A stretch of 64,000 nt of DNA from Nitrospirales bacterium (GTDB lineage: Bacteria; Nitrospirota; Nitrospiria; Nitrospirales; UBA8639): positions 320,001 to 384,000 of the forward strand of contig OY729426.1 in NCBI GenBank assembly GCA_963422365.1. The letters run 5' to 3'. The translations under genes and the position numbers were made by a program. Shown here one piece after another: positions 19,739 through 28,483 of this stretch; the stretch's first letter is position 1, and each line of letters opens with the position of its first letter. Under the pieces are notes generated by a model. That model was not told the origin of the DNA. It searched no databases and was given only the letters and a program-made list of their open reading frames with translations.

Positions 19739-20035
19739 TAAAACGACACAACCCCGTGGGGGCAACCCAACCGTTGGCCGGGACTAAACAGCGACGTGAG
19801 CGGAAGCGGCACCAATGCAAGGGGCCGCCGATGATTTGCATTTGAAAGTTTAACTTGCATCATGCAGTATCCCCTTTGGCATCTGACCGGACCACGTCAA
19901 TCTGGAAAGACCATGCCCTGACACGCAACTCGACAATCCCGACGAGACGGTGAGGTTGTGCCGTTGACTGACCTCGTTGTGGTGCTTGAGCGCTTCCAGG
20001 AGAAAATACCTGATGGACGTCTTCCTTTACGTATC

Positions 20036-21871
<1,836 letters not shown>

Positions 21872-21923: not shown

Positions 21924-23330
21924 TTATGGCTGGAGCCTCTCTCGGAACGGCTCTGACTTACGGGCAGTCCTCCATAACTTGCGGGTGAACCTGCGGCCTA
22001 GGCCTCGCTCAATCTCACGCCATTTCCGCTCTTCGTCCGACGTGATGAACGTGACCGCTTCTCCTGAGCGGCCCATGCGGCCAGTCCGTCCGACCCTGTG
22101 CGTGAAAAGTTGTTCCGAGTCCGGCAGGTCATAGTTGATGACTTGGCCAATGCCTTCAACGTCCAAGCCTCGAGCCGCCACATTTGTCGCGACCAAAATC
22201 GGCGCGGCGCCAGAACGGAAGTCTAGCATCACACGCTCACGTGCGTTTTGGCTAAGATTTCCTTGGAGCGCCCCTACCGGATAGCCCAACGTGTCGAGCT
22301 GTCTTGCCAGCTTATTGACGCCGTGCTTGGTCTTACCAAAAACGATAATCGGAGCGCCGTCCCGCTGGTTTAAAAGCGTTTTGAGAGCCTCTATCTTGTC
22401 GCTCTTCTGGATGGTATAGACTAGGTGCTCCACAGTGGGCAGAGCTTGCAGGTCTGCGTCCACTTTCACCGTGACGGGGTTCCGCAGGTATTTCTTCGCG
22501 GTCTTCGCCACCCACTCAGGCATGGTTGCGGAGAGAAGCGCCGTCTGCCGACTGGATGGCGTCTCGCTCAGGATGGCTTCCACATCGTGGGCAAACCCTC
22601 TATCCAGCATTTCGTCCGCTTCATCCAGCACCAAGAATCGCACCGATCTCAGGTCGAGTGTGCCATGCCGTAGATGGTCCAGCGTACGTCCAGGAGTGCC
22701 GATGATGATCTGGGCTCCGTTCCTCAACGCCGTGTGCTCCGGCCTCAACGACCGGCCGCCGTACAGTAACGTCACACGCAGCCGCTGTGATGAAGCCAAG
22801 GCCTTCATGACTCCAGACACCTGAATGGCCAGCTCCCGGGTGGGCACCAGCACAAGCGCCTGGACCTGCAGGACCGACGGTTCACACTGTTCTGCCAGGG
22901 GCACAGCAAACGCCAGCGTCTTTCCGGACCCCGTGCGCGCCTGACCGATCAAGTCCCGTCCCGTTAGGAGATGGGGGATGGACTTTTCTTGAATGGGCGT
23001 AGGCTCTGAGATGTTCATCCGGGAAAGCGCCGCTCTGGTCAAACCCTTCAACGCCATTCCAGGAAACACGGCAGCACCGGCATGGGCGCTATCGGCAGAA
23101 GTATTATTTGCAACAAATGACTCACACACCGGTGTGTCGACCGCAGAGGAAAGACCGTTTCGACGGGCTTTAAAGCACGAGGGGCAGTACACCGCCCTGT
23201 CAGGACTGGGCCGGAAGGGGACGGTTGTCGACATATCGCAATCAGCGCAAACGGCCTGGTGGCGCTGTGTACGGTTAGATGGACGTAGACGGGTTGACGT
23301 TGATAGAGATTGAAAAGGCATAGGGAACAA
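21924..23330 (-). CDS. DEAD-box RNA helicase with N-terminal CxxC-x17-CxxC zinc ribbon
   Basis: PTPIQ, ARTGSGKT, PTRELA, TPGR, DEAD, SAT, ARGLD, HRVGRTGR; N-terminal CADC-17aa-CPSC. Confidence 0.93.
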   Translation of the reverse strand: MFPMPFQSLSTSTRLRPSNRTQRHQAVCADCDMSTTVPFRPSPDRAVYCPSCFKARRNGLSSAVDTPVCESFVANNTSADSAHAGAAVFPGMALKGLTRAALSRMNISEPTPIQEKSIPHLLTGRDLIGQARTGSGKTLAFAVPLAEQCEPSVLQVQALVLVPTRELAIQVSGVMKALASSQRLRVTLLYGGRSLRPEHTALRNGAQIIIGTPGRTLDHLRHGTLDLRSVRFLVLDEADEMLDRGFAHDVEAILSETPSSRQTALLSATMPEWVAKTAKKYLRNPVTVKVDADLQALPTVEHLVYTIQKSDKIEALKTLLNQRDGAPIIVFGKTKHGVNKLARQLDTLGYPVGALQGNLSQNARERVMLDFRSGAAPILVATNVAARGLDVEGIGQVINYDLPDSEQLFTHRVGRTGRMGRSGEAVTFITSDEERKWREIERGLGRRFTRKLWRTARKSEPFRERLQP

Positions 23331-23596: not shown

Positions 23597-23616
23597 AGCC
23601 GCTGAGGTCAGCGGCT
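23597..23616 (-). terminator. Intrinsic terminator downstream of tRNA-Asn
   Basis: 8-bp hairpin AGCCGCTG/CAGCGGCT followed by a short T-rich tail on the minus strand. Confidence 0.55.
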
Positions 23617-23623
23617 ATAAATT

Positions 23624-23981
23624 TGGCTCCTCGGGCAGGACTCGAACCTGCGACCAATCGGTTACGAGTTTCCCAGTATTTCTACCGGACTCGGACTATC
23701 TCATCACCAGCCTGACGAATCAGGTGAGGGTGTCGGGCGCTTGTGAGGTCTTATTGGGTTGGGTTCCTCAACCTCTAGTCTCTGCACGTTCTTGCCTACC
23801 AAGACCCTTCGGCAAGCTTCGATCAGGATTCCCTTTCCGAGTTCGCCACGAACTCGGGGAAGGCTTCCCTGAATTCACCCGATTTTTCAACCACAGTTTC
23901 CTGTGGAAGCTGCAATACGACGTGAATCTTTCGCACGCCTCCCTTTACAGCCGACCGCTCTACCAACTGAGCTACCGAGGA
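23624..23981 (-). tRNA. tRNA-Asn(GTT), split by an intron; exons 23981-23947 and 23664-23624
   Basis: Joined exons give a 76-nt cloverleaf: TCCTCGG acceptor, GCTC D-stem, GTCGG-CTGTTAA-CCGAT anticodon arm, GCAGG-TTCGAGT-CCTGC T arm, discriminator G, CCA. Confidence 0.95.
23665..23946 (-). ncRNA. Group I self-splicing intron (282 nt, no ORF)
   Basis: Follows U and ends in G; IGS GCAGC pairs with exon GCTGT; P2 CCACAG-GAAA-CTGTGG; P3 TCGGGTG/CGCCCGA; P4 TCAGGG/TCCTGA; R element CAGAGACTA and S element AGATAGTCC form P7; P9 CCGGTA-GAAA-TACTGG; P9.0 GAGT/ACTC. Confidence 0.93.
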
Positions 23982-24082
23982 ACACGATCGTTGGCTTCTT
24001 TTCCACCATGGTGGAGTCGGAGCGTGATCATAACATAATTCTGAAATTGAGCAATAGCTCCTGCCGACAACAGTTTCATATA

Positions 24083-24346
24083 CTAAAACTGAAAATCGTC
24101 GGAATCCTCTTCGCCTTCTTCGGCCTCTGCCGCTCCACCTTCGGATAGCGCGACGTAATGCCGCGCCCAAGATAAATAAATGTTGGCGCTGTCTTTCATG
24201 GCATCGGCACCCATGGTCAATTTTTTGGCGACATCGGAATCTCCTCCCATGAGTTCCATTTCCTGGGCACGACTCTCTAATCGGTCATGGAATTGGCTCA
24301 TGTGCAGGGTAATCTCACCCATGAGTTCTCTGAGGTCATCGCTCAT
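24083..24346 (-). CDS. Small acidic hypothetical protein downstream of the oxidoreductase operon
   Basis: Plausible helical ORF with an RBS-like GAAGG upstream. Confidence 0.65.
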   Translation of the reverse strand: MSDDLRELMGEITLHMSQFHDRLESRAQEMELMGGDSDVAKKLTMGADAMKDSANIYLSWARHYVALSEGGAAEAEEGEEDSDDFQF

Positions 24347-24475
24347 GTCCACACCTTCTGTTTCATTCGACTCTTGTGGGAGCTCACTTGAGAAAAAATT
24401 GAGAAAAAATAAAGCCCCACGACAATCAAAAATGATTCTGTCGTAGGGCCCTTAGCTGATACCTGATGTGTAAAA

Positions 24476-24754
24476 CTACCCTTGATAGGCTTGTCCTAAG
24501 CCAGCGGCTTCTCCGGCCTTGTCCATCAAGGAACCATCAGCACTCACCGCCACCATGTCTATTGCCATATGTTTTGCAGCATCGCAAACCACTTTGCACA
24601 GCTCACAGCCCTTACATCGGTTGATGATTACTTCCGCCACCAGTTTTTCAACATTCAGGTCCAAACAATTGGCCTCGGGGCAGTACATGATGCACAACCG
24701 ACACCCTTTTTTGGCGACGCACTTTTCATCCGTCACTTGCGCTACGTTATACAT
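24476..24754 (-). CDS. porE: Five-subunit 2-oxoacid (probably pyruvate):ferredoxin oxidoreductase, epsilon (4Fe-4S) subunit
   Basis: CVAKKGCRLCIMYCP and CKGCELCKVVC. Confidence 0.75.
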   Translation of the reverse strand: MYNVAQVTDEKCVAKKGCRLCIMYCPEANCLDLNVEKLVAEVIINRCKGCELCKVVCDAAKHMAIDMVAVSADGSLMDKAGEAAGLGQAYQG

Positions 24755-24781
24755 GAATGCCTAGCCTTTCCCCTGTCTTCT

Positions 24782-25477
24782 TTATGCCGCCGCAACGGCT
24801 AGTTCGATATTATTCTTTTCCGCCCATTCACTCGCCATTTCGTATGCCCGGATGACCGTCTCCAAGTTTTTCTTTAACAGCATTTCTTTTTTGGCAAATT
24901 TTTTCTTAATGGCTTCATCCAAGGTGGCCGTTCCCCCAGAGGCCACAAACTTTTTCCCGAACCGCTCCTGCAGTGCCCCATCGAGTCCCTCCAGAGAAAC
25001 GCATTTGGTAATACCGGCAACAGAACCAATCATGGTCATGTTCGTGGAAAGTTCCGTACCAGCCACTTCCAACGCGACCTGGGTTCCTTTGATGTAAAAC
25101 ACCGCCACATCCAGATCCTTTAACCGCTTCACATCTTCATCTGATAAAAGCGGCACATCTGAATTAATGATGACAACTCCGTTTTCCTTAATACCCGAGT
25201 AAAATGGCATGGTATAACTTTTGCCCATCGTTATCACTTGCGGATGAAACACTTCAATCACGTCGGGAAAGACCAACTCTCCACGATCATAGATCCGACT
25301 GATACCAATCCGACAATAACTCTCAGCCGGCGCCATGCGCTTTTCCGCACCAAAAAATGGATTCGAGATCGCAAATTTTCCGTCACGTGACGCCGCCATC
25401 GCCAACACGTGTGCAGCCGTCACGGCACCCTGGCCACCAAGACCCGACATGCGAATATTTAATCTCCGCTTGATCAT
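24782..25477 (-). CDS. porC: 2-oxoacid:ferredoxin oxidoreductase gamma subunit
   Basis: GLGGQGAVTA, FGAEKRMAP. Confidence 0.8.
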   Translation of the reverse strand: MIKRRLNIRMSGLGGQGAVTAAHVLAMAASRDGKFAISNPFFGAEKRMAPAESYCRIGISRIYDRGELVFPDVIEVFHPQVITMGKSYTMPFYSGIKENGVVIINSDVPLLSDEDVKRLKDLDVAVFYIKGTQVALEVAGTELSTNMTMIGSVAGITKCVSLEGLDGALQERFGKKFVASGGTATLDEAIKKKFAKKEMLLKKNLETVIRAYEMASEWAEKNNIELAVAAA

Positions 25478-25511
25478 GATGCTTTCCCCTTTTTCATTCC
25501 GTAGGGAGGGC

Positions 25512-26417
25512 TCAGGCCTTTCCCGCCAATTGCTTTTTCGCAGCGGCTTTTCTTTCTTTTTCCTTCGCCGCCAGTTCGGTCAACAACTCTTTGGCTTGAT
25601 CACTGACATACTCCTTATACGCAAATCGTTCAGTCGGTTTTTCAGAGTCCCGCATTTCTTGCAAGCCTTCCATGCTGTTTTTCCCGATTTCCAGGATACA
25701 CGGGGTGTAGAGCTGCAAATAGGTAGGACCGATTTCGCGAGCCACATGAATCGCATTTTTGATGACTTTTTCAACAAGGTTTGGTTTGCTGACCGTACAA
25801 TTCACCACGTAGTGGCATCCGGACTCACGCGCGATTTCCGGCAGTTTGACCTTTTCAAACGTTTTTCCCACGGGAGCCATCTTAGCCACAAACCCTTTTT
25901 GCATTAATCCGCTTTCTTGGCCGCCTGTATTGGCGTAGAGCTCATTATCAAAACAAATGGTCGTGAATTTTTCTTGGCGGAACCAAGCTTGCAGCGTCAT
26001 ATCGAGGCCGATATCGACCGTTGCCCCATCACCGGCCAACACCACCACATCTTTGACCCGCCCGGGGAACCGCACGGTGAGGGCACGCTTGAGCCCCGAA
26101 GCAATGGCGTTCTGATTGCCAAAGAGGGAGTGAATATTGTGTACGCCCACATGTGGGAAAACCAAGCTGGTGCAGCCCGTCGAACCCACCATCACGGTAT
26201 CTTCCGGGGCAGGCAATGACGCTAAAATGTACCGAAAAGCCATGGACTCCGGGCACCCGGCACACAACGAATGCTCTTCTATCAATTCCTTTGAGGTCCC
26301 GATATCCTTCCACCCGCGGTTCTCATTCCCATACGTTGCTCGTCCAACCAAATCCTGATACTCCGATGGCATGATATCGAACATTTCCGGAGCTATTTTA
26401 ATTCGTTCTTTACTCAT
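25512..26417 (-). CDS. porB: 2-oxoacid:ferredoxin oxidoreductase beta subunit (TPP binding)
   Basis: LCAGCP, STGC, GDG...DNELYANTGGQ. Confidence 0.82.
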   Translation of the reverse strand: MSKERIKIAPEMFDIMPSEYQDLVGRATYGNENRGWKDIGTSKELIEEHSLCAGCPESMAFRYILASLPAPEDTVMVGSTGCTSLVFPHVGVHNIHSLFGNQNAIASGLKRALTVRFPGRVKDVVVLAGDGATVDIGLDMTLQAWFRQEKFTTICFDNELYANTGGQESGLMQKGFVAKMAPVGKTFEKVKLPEIARESGCHYVVNCTVSKPNLVEKVIKNAIHVAREIGPTYLQLYTPCILEIGKNSMEGLQEMRDSEKPTERFAYKEYVSDQAKELLTELAAKEKERKAAAKKQLAGKA

Positions 26418-26499
26418 GGGGCCTCCTCACACTTATCCAAAAATTTCACATTAATTCCGCATGCCATTTTGACAGACTCAGCAATCGACACATGCCGTG

Positions 26500-27708
26500 T
26501 CAGCTTCCACGTCCGGCCAAGCTTTCGGCTTTAATGCCCAATTGCTTCTTGATGTCGGCCGCAATAATTTCTGGCGGCATGGTCATGCCTCCGCAGACAT
26601 GCGGACCGGCATACACTCGCTCCGGATTCTGAATCGTGGCACGAATCTCTTTGGCAAGCCAACCCGTGACATTAAACTCCGGCACAATGATATGTTTGGC
26701 ATGCTTGGTAGCCTCTCGAATTTCTTCTTCCGGCCATGGCCGAAGTACTTTGATTTTTAGGATTCCCACATCGATGCCATCCTCTTCCAAGAGAATCTGG
26801 GCTTCACGACCTTGGGAAACCGCCGTACCGGACGAGACGATCAACACTTCGGCATTGGGCTTGTCCACTTCAATCAATCCGTCCAACCACCGAATGGTGT
26901 GCTTTCTGGACCGCTCTATCGCTGCCCACACCTCCTGTTGCCAGCTTGCATGGGTGGCATAACTAATATAATTGCTCTTCATGACAAACGGGTCGCGCAT
27001 CATTCTGACCGGCGGACATTCCATATCCATACAGGGCACGGGAGACCGATACGGATCATATGGCGGAAGACACATATCGGCGGGGGTCAGATTCACGACA
27101 TCTTTGGTATGGGTCACGAAAAACCCATCACAACAGAGCGCCAACGGCAAATGCACATCCGGCTCTTCCGACACCATGTACCCTTTTAAAATCCAGTCAT
27201 AAAAATCTTGAGCTGTCTCGGCATGCCAAACCAGCATCCCGGTATTCAAGAGATATGAGATTTCCAACGTATCCGGCTGAATCGAGAGAGGTGAGTTAAT
27301 GCCGCGACAGGTCACGATCATTTGAATGGGCAGACGCGCCCCGGCCCACATCGGAAAGTTCTCCATGGCGCGCATGGTGCCAGGGCCCGCGGTTGTGGTG
27401 AATACCCGTGCACCGCCGAAGGCCGCCCCGGCGCATTGGGACATCACCGCAAATTCACTTTCCCCGCGAAAGTAGTCTCCGATAAACCCTTCGGCAAACA
27501 ATTCTCCGATCAACGCCGCGGCTTCACTTTGCGGGGTAATCGGATACGCAATCATGACATCGCAATTCGAACGACGAACCGCCTCTTTAATGACTTCACT
27601 GCCCGTATAAAAGCAGGGAGTTCGCTCAGCTTCATGCAACAACTTCCAGGCATCCGTCACGACCTGACCGGCCCTATTTTTTGTCCCGATTAACGATTGA
27701 GTTGCCAT
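26500..27708 (-). CDS. porA: 2-oxoacid:ferredoxin oxidoreductase alpha subunit
   Basis: AYPITPQSE, ESEFAV, TTTAGPG; por versus for assignment is from memory of Nitrospira/Aquificae paralogs. Confidence 0.82.
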   Translation of the reverse strand: MATQSLIGTKNRAGQVVTDAWKLLHEAERTPCFYTGSEVIKEAVRRSNCDVMIAYPITPQSEAAALIGELFAEGFIGDYFRGESEFAVMSQCAGAAFGGARVFTTTAGPGTMRAMENFPMWAGARLPIQMIVTCRGINSPLSIQPDTLEISYLLNTGMLVWHAETAQDFYDWILKGYMVSEEPDVHLPLALCCDGFFVTHTKDVVNLTPADMCLPPYDPYRSPVPCMDMECPPVRMMRDPFVMKSNYISYATHASWQQEVWAAIERSRKHTIRWLDGLIEVDKPNAEVLIVSSGTAVSQGREAQILLEEDGIDVGILKIKVLRPWPEEEIREATKHAKHIIVPEFNVTGWLAKEIRATIQNPERVYAGPHVCGGMTMPPEIIAADIKKQLGIKAESLAGRGS

Positions 27709-27868
27709 GATTGTGCCTCCTTTTATCTTAGGCTAAATGGCTTTTTCCCATCAGGATGTTACAACTGTATGTCATGAATAAAGAATTTCATGTTTCTTGC
27801 ATTGTAACTTCTTAAAAATATTAAATAAATGAAAAATTTTCTTCACGAGACCGCCCCATCCTCGAGCC

Positions 27869-28483
27869 TTAGTCTTTAGGCAGCTCGACCGACCCTTTTA
27901 ATTTTTTCACCCAATCGGCTAATTTCATGATCTTTTCGGCTGTGGCATCACGGAAAGACAGCATGGCATCTTCATGGCCGGCCTGAGCGCACATGGCGAT
28001 GGTATAACAATAGGTGCCTCCACGAATAATCTTGAGAGACAGATTCGCCTGGTGACAGTGAACGCCGACAAACATGCAGGTATCGATTTTGTTATGCCAA
28101 ATAGTGAGATTGGGATGGTTGGGATTGATTTCGACTTCCGGGTTGATTTTCGGATATTTGGGCCGGTAATCAGGCATAGGAATGAGCATCGCCTGCTGGG
28201 ACGGGGTGACGCACGCCTTAAGCGTTTCATATAAATGCCTGATCGCCGTGGCTTTTCCAGCCGCTTTTTCATTCCAGGCCCACAGGACAAGTGGACCGGG
28301 GAAAATCGTTGGAACTTTGGCCGATAAGAACTGACGGGCCGCGACTTCCATGGCTTCCTCTTCATTGACAATTTTCCCATGAATATGCGCTTGTCCCGGG
28401 TCCGGCAGACGAATGCCCATGCTGGCTGCCGCAGGGGGGAGAAAATGCTCCGGACCTCGTAAAACTTGATACATTGTCGACAT
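27869..28483 (-). CDS. porD: 2-oxoacid:ferredoxin oxidoreductase delta subunit
   Basis: FLPPAAASMG, PDYRPKYPKINPEVEINPNHPNLTIWHNKI; first gene of the operon. Confidence 0.75.
   Translation of the reverse strand: MSTMYQVLRGPEHFLPPAAASMGIRLPDPGQAHIHGKIVNEEEAMEVAARQFLSAKVPTIFPGPLVLWAWNEKAAGKATAIRHLYETLKACVTPSQQAMLIPMPDYRPKYPKINPEVEINPNHPNLTIWHNKIDTCMFVGVHCHQANLSLKIIRGGTYCYTIAMCAQAGHEDAMLSFRDATAEKIMKLADWVKKLKGSVELPKD

Follow-up and report, generated by a model that had tools for sequence, protein, structure and literature searches.

How an essential gene tolerates an insert in the middle of its anticodon, where such an insert came from and how it is kept are the questions raised by a tRNA-Asn(GUU) locus of a Nitrospirales bacterium (GenBank assembly GCA_963422365.1), which we analysed in a window of 64,000 nt (positions 320,001 to 384,000 of contig OY729426.1). 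An initial annotation had described the insert as a group I intron and had proposed a new host lineage or a horizontal transfer. Results of our analysis indicate, with a probability of about 0.8, that the intron likely self-splices to yield an essential tRNA, and that it likely descends, by deletion, from a mobile intron encoding an HNH nuclease, for which tRNA-Asn genes without the intron are the predicted substrate.

The split tRNA-Asn gene and the fold of its intron

The gene lies on the minus strand, which the initial annotation did not state, and the insert divides its anticodon as GU/U (Table 1). ARAGORN called it as i(36,282) when the intron search was switched on and recognised a 76-nt tRNA-Asn(GTT) in the exons joined by excising 23665-23946, as had been anticipated; the intron boundaries are set by the 19 same-genus genomes in which the exons are contiguous, and both the call and these genomes agree with the proposed insertion at 35/36. 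Default ARAGORN misses the gene and, according to a passage of its description, such genes are outside the design of tRNAscan-SE 2.0, in line with the expectation that standard callers overlook it. The 5' exon is identical in the 18 intron-bearing and in most of the 19 intron-less genomes of the genus. The host genome is one contig of 2.50 Mb that is 98.6% complete, and no second tRNA-Asn was found in it with 46 plain ARAGORN calls, exon BLAST and a loop-motif scan. The sole tRNA-Asn carries the insert, and therefore the cell must remove it, as the initial annotation had argued for the case of a single copy. The suspected Nitrospirota host agrees with the named homologues of the upstream gene, all of which are from Nitrospira, Nitrospirales or Nitrospirota.

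Table 1. Features of the tRNA-Asn locus, in window coordinates
Feature	Position	Strand	Length, basis or remark
Conserved 87-89-aa Nitrospirales gene, putative upstream boundary of exchanged block	24083..24352	-	syntenic in 38/38 loci tested
Candidate promoter and leader, "intron-type" haplotype	23982..24054	-	conservation only
-35-like box	24054-24049	-	conserved in both allele types
Extended -10-like box	24032-24027	-	conserved in both allele types
Leader hairpin	24014-24003	-	within intron-type leader
tRNA-Asn(GUU) 5' exon, positions 1-35, ending in U35	23947..23981	-	35 nt, ARAGORN
Group I intron at 35/36, terminal G at 23665	23665..23946	-	282 nt; RF00028, ARAGORN, covariation
Loop L1, remnant of HNH gene cassette	23914..23946	-	33 nt
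Purine-rich, RBS-like 5' end of L1	23944-23938	-	sequence
6-bp L1 hairpin	23939-23934 with 23924-23919	-	fold
Last L1 codons of nuclease	23933-23914	-	comparison with G332
Leftover frame of nuclease C-terminus, through guide sequence, P2, P3, P4 and P5 to stop in P4'	23823..23933	-	translation
Internal guide sequence	23908..23915	-	pairs with 23952-23945 (P1, U35.G23913), from folds
P2 hairpin, GAAA loop	23891..23906	-	5/6 pairs compensatory, 100% paired
P3 (23882-23876 with 23739-23733)	within 23693..23882	-	catalytic core, 100% paired
P4-P5-P6-P6a domain	23786..23872	-	alignment of 42 cores
P7 (23782-23776 with 23698-23693)	within 23693..23882	-	bulged A, G-binding site, invariant 42/42
P7.1 stem-loop between P7 and P3'	23745..23775	-	96.7% paired, 4/5 pairs compensatory
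Predicted 4-bp P11-like pseudoknot, L6a (23807-23804) with L7.1 (23764-23761)	23761..23807	-	covariation
P8 and P8a extension	23705..23732	-	alignment
P9.0 and P9 (GAAA loop), adjoining terminal G	23666..23692	-	alignment
tRNA-Asn 3' exon, U36 through encoded CCA	23624..23664	-	41 nt, ARAGORN

The Rfam group I intron model RF00028 matches 23672-23956 at 62.6 bits, above its curated gathering cut-off of 50 (E 2.1e-14); matches to the SAM-III and Flavivirus DB models fell below cut-off and were dismissed as chance. The region folds with z = -3.13 (0 of 100 shuffles as good), and the fold recovers P1, P2, P3, P4, P5, P6a, P7.1, P8, P9.0 and P9. For the analysis of covariation, 106 introns were extracted from 133 loci examined; L069, L160, L098 and L125, the last with a divergent P7.1 region, were set aside, as were five without anchors, and the 97 cores were dereplicated to 44, two of which were dropped for their long insertions, leaving 42 aligned. 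In these 42 homologues the named structure is paired in 95.4% of cells, and 41 of its 70 pairs are compensatory, with 0 of 500 shuffles as high and slid registers at 30-44%. The alignment supports the group I identity and the pairings listed in the initial annotation (P2, P3, P4, P5, P7, P8, P9 and P9.0); in P9.0 all three pairs are compensatory, and P9 is 98% paired. The described splice-site features are likewise seen in the ARAGORN junction and the folds: a U, U35 of the 5' exon, precedes the 5' splice site and forms the U.G pair of P1 with the guide sequence, and the insert ends in G. The junction GGCTGT/...G/TAAC is present in 105 of the 106 extracted introns, and GCAGC of the guide sequence is invariant in the 42 cores.

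The extra stem between P7 and P3', which had been proposed as a P7.1-type feature of subgroup IA, lies in an insertion of 36 nt and is substantiated by its compensatory pairs. The loop of this stem is predicted to form a pseudoknot with L6a, in a register that was picked after inspecting the sequences: 90.6% of positions are paired in 48 distinct loop combinations, among which related rows are not independent. Shuffling gives 77.8% (none of 5000 as high), and shifting the register gives 42-58%. All four positions pair in 36 of the 48 combinations and do not in the other 12, and the outer pairs swap among G-C, C-G, U-A and A-U. Together, P7.1 and this pseudoknot are predicted to brace the core.

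P7.1 and P7.2 stems mark class IA, and subgroup IA1, with its P11 pseudoknot, was reportedly defined by Jaeger, Westhof and Michel in 1991 on organellar introns. The present intron shares with IA1 introns, as these are said to be built, an extra P7-P3' stem whose loop pairs with the P6a region, but it has no clear counterpart of their P7.1a stem, as the 21-nt L7.1 loop is conserved in sequence and contains no covarying second stem. The two stems (P7.1 and P7.2) said to characterise IA2 are not seen, the gap from P7.1 to P3' being only ~5 nt, while IC3 introns, which reportedly have no stem between P7 and P3', differ by the absence of such an insertion. By its stems the intron appears to be of IA type, its covariance-model score being that against the general model RF00028. 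P7.1/P7.2 are also among the class features given in a passage of Hausner 2014 (PMC3984707).

Three changes are private to this copy. Position 23822 is U, whereas 41 of the 42 cores carry G there, in the first pair of P6 (G.U), so that the pair is U.U here; a G-to-U change at 23709 results in a P8 mismatch; and 1 nt is deleted near 23798. Sequencing error was considered and is ruled out by an identical contig of depth 293 from another sample (run X4), compared over 1001 nt with 0 differences; the private letters are therefore real. Folding can readily be tested on this intron, which combines the covarying pseudoknot with a naturally occurring P6 variant within an essential gene.

Guanosine attack followed by exon joining is the established chemistry of group I introns. 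The guide sequence of this intron would pair through U35.G with the 5' exon. The first attack, on the bond following U35, would come from a free guanosine bound in P7; the second would come from U35 itself, on the bond following the terminal G, and would rejoin GU and U. Structure, conservation and the sole gene copy argue that the intron is very likely functional; the broken, nearly invariant P6 pair at 23822 and the P8 mismatch count against this main reading. Spliced RNA was not seen in three RNA runs, which held only unspliced contigs of a relative that may be DNA or precursor, one of these runs being labelled as a sponge metagenome. Exon-exon joints were rejected as evidence of splicing, as they come from intron-less genes of other organisms, with 4-5 mismatches per 41 nt, and occur also in a DNA run.

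Outside the window, a second group I intron of 282 nt (G000:C1:779446-779804, that is L002:1423-1781, plus strand; RF00028 59.3 bits) splits an initiator-type tRNA-Met(CAU) at 33/34, and no intron-less initiator tRNA was called in the genome. When this fMet intron was used as a control, its junction was matched in 14 of 38 genus genomes, always in the intron form, and 24 were unmatched. Annotations of these nitrite-oxidiser genomes wrongly lack tRNA-Asn and, in the genome studied here, the initiator tRNA too. ARAGORN also calls a tRNA-SeC(TCA) at G000:C1 813319-813402.

The nuclease gene of loop L1 and its phage relatives

In three relatives (G209, G244 and G271) loop L1 contains an HNH ORF that runs on through the guide sequence, P2, P3 and P4. 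The G209 product matches PF01844 at 22.9 bits (cut-off 21.4), while those of G244 (20.5) and G271 (17.3) fall below. Among 37 sequenced introns of the phylum, the nuclease is motif-intact in three, full-length but damaged in three (G364, G332 and G226) and shorter in 31. The earlier description of the intron as ORF-less is correct for the present copy, with its 33-nt L1, but does not hold as a general trait, since relatives keep the HNH gene.

Several observations concern what is left of this gene. The 20 nt before the guide sequence agree with the end of the G332 nuclease gene at 16 of 20 positions, the best match elsewhere in that loop being 11 of 20. Three genomes of the genus (G023, G027 and G032) keep ~65 nt more in L1, including both ends of the ORF, and the surviving two nuclease ends fold as a hairpin. 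A conserved CGG before the guide sequence was considered as a P10 partner of the 3' exon; this reading was dropped because the CGG is not kept in G060 and because nuclease codons, located in the L1 hairpin, explain it better. The leftover frame, which is probably not translated, shares 58% identity with the intact protein of G271 (residues 100-125), a likeness that is in part forced by RNA structure. No intact nuclease was found in this genome or in L1 of any of the 18 genus introns. Thus, the nuclease gene likely once sat in L1 with its end overlapping the ribozyme, an arrangement seen in relatives, and was likely deleted in this genus with the hairpin left behind as the remnant seen in the sequence. 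ORFs that overlap the core are described in a passage of Hausner 2014 (PMC3984707), which also reports little evidence of horizontal movement among bacteria.

A search with the nuclease protein yielded 1226 relatives at E <= 1e-5. Among the 120 of them that were listed, identity is 67-94% and 100 carry the ribozyme-overlap tail; the named relatives, six among the 120 listed, include Nitrospira, Acidobacteriota, Aerophobetes, Deltaproteobacteria and Edwardsbacteria. Their occurrence in several phyla suggests that the nuclease may have spread between phyla. Of the best 80 of 332 metagenome loci, ARAGORN identifies 65 as tRNA-Asn 35/36 introns and the exon pattern 67; having been retrieved via the nuclease, these loci are uninformative on how often it is intact. 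A PDB sequence search with the nuclease gave only weak matches (E 0.02-0.04), to McrA and to the HNH domain of a group II maturase.

Viral relatives of the nuclease (43-65% identity in the best 80 of 577 viral loci) are mostly free-standing: 76 of these 80 have no intron call around the nuclease gene. They lie amid tRNA genes in 77 cases, and tRNA-Asn is present within 1.5 kb in 57, the next-commonest amino acid being represented in 34. In loci with at least two tRNAs, tRNA-Asn is the immediate neighbour of the nuclease gene in 49 of 72 (shuffle mean 19.3, 0/5000), and after dereplication it adjoins the gene in 30 of 47 (expected 12.2). This neighbourhood points to the tRNA-Asn gene as the target, and its anticodon is likely the site recognised, as judged from gene arrangement; the anticodon arms of the phage tRNA-Asn genes beside HNH differ from that of the host. 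On one viral contig (L170:613-876 / L068) only a few bases separate the end of the HNH gene from a tRNA-Asn with an ORF-less intron, a pair that is a candidate two-part homing unit. With intact nucleases available in relatives, and with phage cousins lying beside tRNA-Asn, a tRNA-anticodon-specific HNH enzyme is directly testable.

Distribution of the intron and its linkage to the promoter

The intron is present in 17 of 36 same-genus genomes (a count that leaves out G462) with 92-97% identity, the remaining 19 having contiguous exons. In the phylum, a pattern search gave matches in 31 of 401 genomes, and ARAGORN confirmed 27, in six families; G398 was a false match (not a tRNA), and G070 and G101 (contig ends) and G246 were unconfirmed. 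The pattern misses T-arm variants, so that at least 27 of 401 genomes carry the intron, and five further family carriers (G360, G424, G332, G446 and G226) lie beyond the pattern. The intron is therefore a regular but patchy resident of Nitrospirota. The suggestion of a rare new arrival is not supported, given this spread over nearly half of the genus and at least six families and the single clade formed by the genus copies; the intron is widespread in Nitrospirota, which the initial annotation itself had said would remove its novelty.

The clade of the 18 genus introns has support of 98/96, and the intron probably entered the genus once. Its presence follows the host phylogeny only loosely. 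On the upstream-operon tree of 37 genomes the intron state changes nine times, of which starred branches force seven, against means of 12.6-12.7 in shuffles; with 13-18 of 500 shuffles as low, the clustering on the host tree is mild. Three pairs of rpoB sisters (G031/G017, G009/G028 and G022/G004, at distances of 0.015-0.030) are unlike in intron state; the outgroup labels of the rpoB tree are provisional, G360 being intron-bearing.

A different pattern is seen directly upstream of the gene. A promoter/terminator consensus scan at the locus gave nothing above threshold, and the candidate promoter was recognised by its conservation. The haplotype of promoter spacer and leader separates the 18 intron-bearing from the 19 intron-less genomes, and the nearest neighbour of each leader shares its intron state in 37 of 37. 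The intron state changes once on the leader tree (support 100) versus eight times on the tree of the adjacent gene, which tracks the host tree and not the intron state. The sister pairs are alike in this adjacent gene (0.92-0.95) but not in the leader (0.30-0.39), and they mostly share the downstream 60 nt (0.60-1.0). An empty site behind an intron-type leader was found in 0 of the 19 intron-less genus genomes. That the intron jumps on the host tree, yet shows one change on the leader tree, points to block exchange and not to precise loss: through exchange between related species, the intron likely comes and goes along with the tRNA promoter. As suggested by this linkage, promoter, leader, 5' exon and intron would have moved as one block by ordinary homologous recombination since the intron entered the genus.

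Outside the genus the association fails, as G332 has the intron downstream of the other type of promoter and G423 and G305 are empty with an intron-type spacer, so that it looks like linkage and not need. Divergence is lower among the leaders linked to the intron (median 0.15) than among those of empty sites (0.45), and leaders of either type follow the host tree in part (rho 0.45-0.88). Because both alleles do so, close relatives may be the main partners in the exchange, or the alleles may represent an old polymorphism sorted among lineages; the host-tree tracking of the leaders counts against block exchange in that long-lived polymorphism with lineage sorting would also produce it. To the question of how nuclease-less bacterial introns are kept or lost, the 37 genus genomes contribute a case in which precise loss is not seen and the exchanged block is short.

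Alternative explanations and known introns

The same patterns can be read in other ways. If the genus ancestor had the intron and it was precisely lost many times, e.g., by recombination with reverse-transcribed spliced tRNA, its presence in the deepest-branching clade of the genus (G023, G027 and G032) and the tracking of rpoB distance by intron and leader distance (rho 0.88, n=14) would be accounted for; but precise loss would keep the intron-type leader, which none of the intron-less genomes has, and would not separate sisters in the leader while they share the upstream gene, which makes this history very improbable. An intron that is still homing, with a nuclease supplied in trans from a phage or elsewhere and the upstream promoter co-converted, is a doubtful but more serious candidate. 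It would fit the clustering of free-standing phage homologues at tRNA-Asn, the viral contig with HNH directly before an intron-bearing tRNA-Asn and the lower divergence of intron-linked leaders, but neither this genome nor L1 of the 18 genus introns offers an intact nuclease, and the phage anticodon arms are not those of the host.

That intron and leader type go together without exception in the genus (37 of 37 genomes) might also mean that the intron requires its own promoter or leader, for stronger transcription or for help in folding, and that selection rather than linkage keeps the pair together. We consider this improbable, given the exceptions outside the genus and the mere 35 nt between leader and intron, in which crossovers would be rare anyway. 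Finally, the private changes (23822, 23709 and the deletion near 23798) could be taken as signs that the copy is dead or mis-assembled and that a working tRNA-Asn is located elsewhere, an idea that is hardly credible in view of the identical contig from another sample, the nearly complete one-contig genome without another tRNA-Asn, and the intact P7, P3 and P1. We return to a probably self-splicing and probably nuclease-deleted descendant of a mobile intron as the best explanation. To its more far-reaching version we would give even odds: that the nuclease-less intron persists genus-wide as one of two old alleles of an essential tRNA gene present in a single copy, never precisely lost and swapped between sisters as a promoter-to-intron block; that it derives from an IA intron, braced by P11, which had taken up a phage HNH directed at the anticodon of tRNA-Asn; and that Nitrospirota and their metagenomes still contain all the stages from the free-standing nuclease to the bare intron.

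The site and the intron type appear to be already known. Williams (10.1101/2020.01.27.920355) raised the number of known tRNA intron settings from 4 to 21, listed the introns of Leu UAA, fMet, Ile CAU and Arg CCU tRNAs as IC3 and indicated that introns above ~400 bp may hold ORFs. The present intron resembles those settings in the U before the 5' splice site, the terminal G and the insertion in the anticodon loop, and by the naming rule of that study it would be Asn.4Ug, located after the 4th loop base, which its geometry fits. The main text of that study never names Asn, Nitrospira or an endonuclease, and for the Asn site neither subgroup nor nuclease nor allele history is given. Our literature search, which covered few subscription papers, did not bring up any publication on the occurrence of this intron in Nitrospirota, on its HNH or pseudoknot, or on the allele exchange. 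While the intron alone is unsurprising, further work would best be directed at its pseudoknot, at what is left of the nuclease and at the allele exchange linked to the promoter.

In Patescibacteria, introns at 35/36 of tRNA-Asn and tRNA-Asp are, according to what Nakagawa, Amikura, Omae and Suzuki reportedly described in 2025, mostly of IA type and self-splicing in vitro; the site is said to be rare outside that group, and its introns mostly to lack nucleases. The intron studied here differs from these by its Nitrospirales host, by a site that is common in Nitrospirota and by the existence of nuclease-bearing members. Bonocora and Shub are said to have described in 2001 a group I intron of Synechocystis tRNA-fMet with an anticodon-specific endonuclease encoded in the 5' loop. 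The likeness concerns a nuclease that targets the anticodon region of the intron-less gene, which here is the predicted target; in contrast to the Synechocystis intron, reportedly IC3 with a non-HNH nuclease and located in another tRNA and at another site, the present one has an IA-type core and an HNH gene that is deleted. Classical IC3 tRNA introns share with it a compact core, similar P, Q, R and S motifs and the anticodon-loop location, but not the 36-nt P7-P3' insertion with P7.1 and the pseudoknot. A precedent for locus-level exchange of a tRNA intron was reportedly provided by Rudi in 2002; here, the unit is a short promoter-to-exon block across 37 species. With regard to the free-standing relatives, a passage on phage T4 SegB (PMC13096335) describes a free-standing nuclease that cuts tRNA-containing DNA and is similarly aimed at tRNA genes, although SegB is a GIY-YIG enzyme and the nuclease here is HNH.

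A scan of named genomes with a narrow P/Q pattern gave one match, a group I intron at 35/36 of tRNA-Tyr(GUA) on an Omnitrophota contig (L033:392-759, minus strand), which has similar P/Q motifs and is without P7.1. Group I introns of ~190-230 nt are also present in the anticodon loops of tRNA-Asn and tRNA-Asp on viral contigs (L064-L075). These are mostly without P7.1, although L065 has a P7.1-like insert; the Tyr intron and most of the fetched viral Asn/Asp introns differ from the present one in having no insertion between P7 and P3'.

Two full intron-less tRNA-Asn genes 2.7 kb apart were observed in G013 (C1:266049-266124 and 268770-268845), possibly in an integrated element. In G209, a 520-aa ORF that appears serine-recombinase-like (L042:1424-2986, minus strand) enters the 3' end of the intron-bearing tRNA-Asn, which suggests that the gene also serves as an integration site. 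In the window, the encoded CCA is directly followed by an 8-bp GC-rich hairpin (23597-23616, minus strand) without a clear U run, in a sequence that varies widely within the genus. Just downstream of the tRNA lies an ORF that looks DEAD-box helicase-like, with an N-terminal CxxC domain (21924-23330, minus strand), and beside it one of TypA/BipA-like GTPase appearance (19958-21871, plus strand). The upstream genes on the same strand (24476-28483), syntenic across the family, are ferredoxin and 2-oxoacid:ferredoxin oxidoreductase-like genes.
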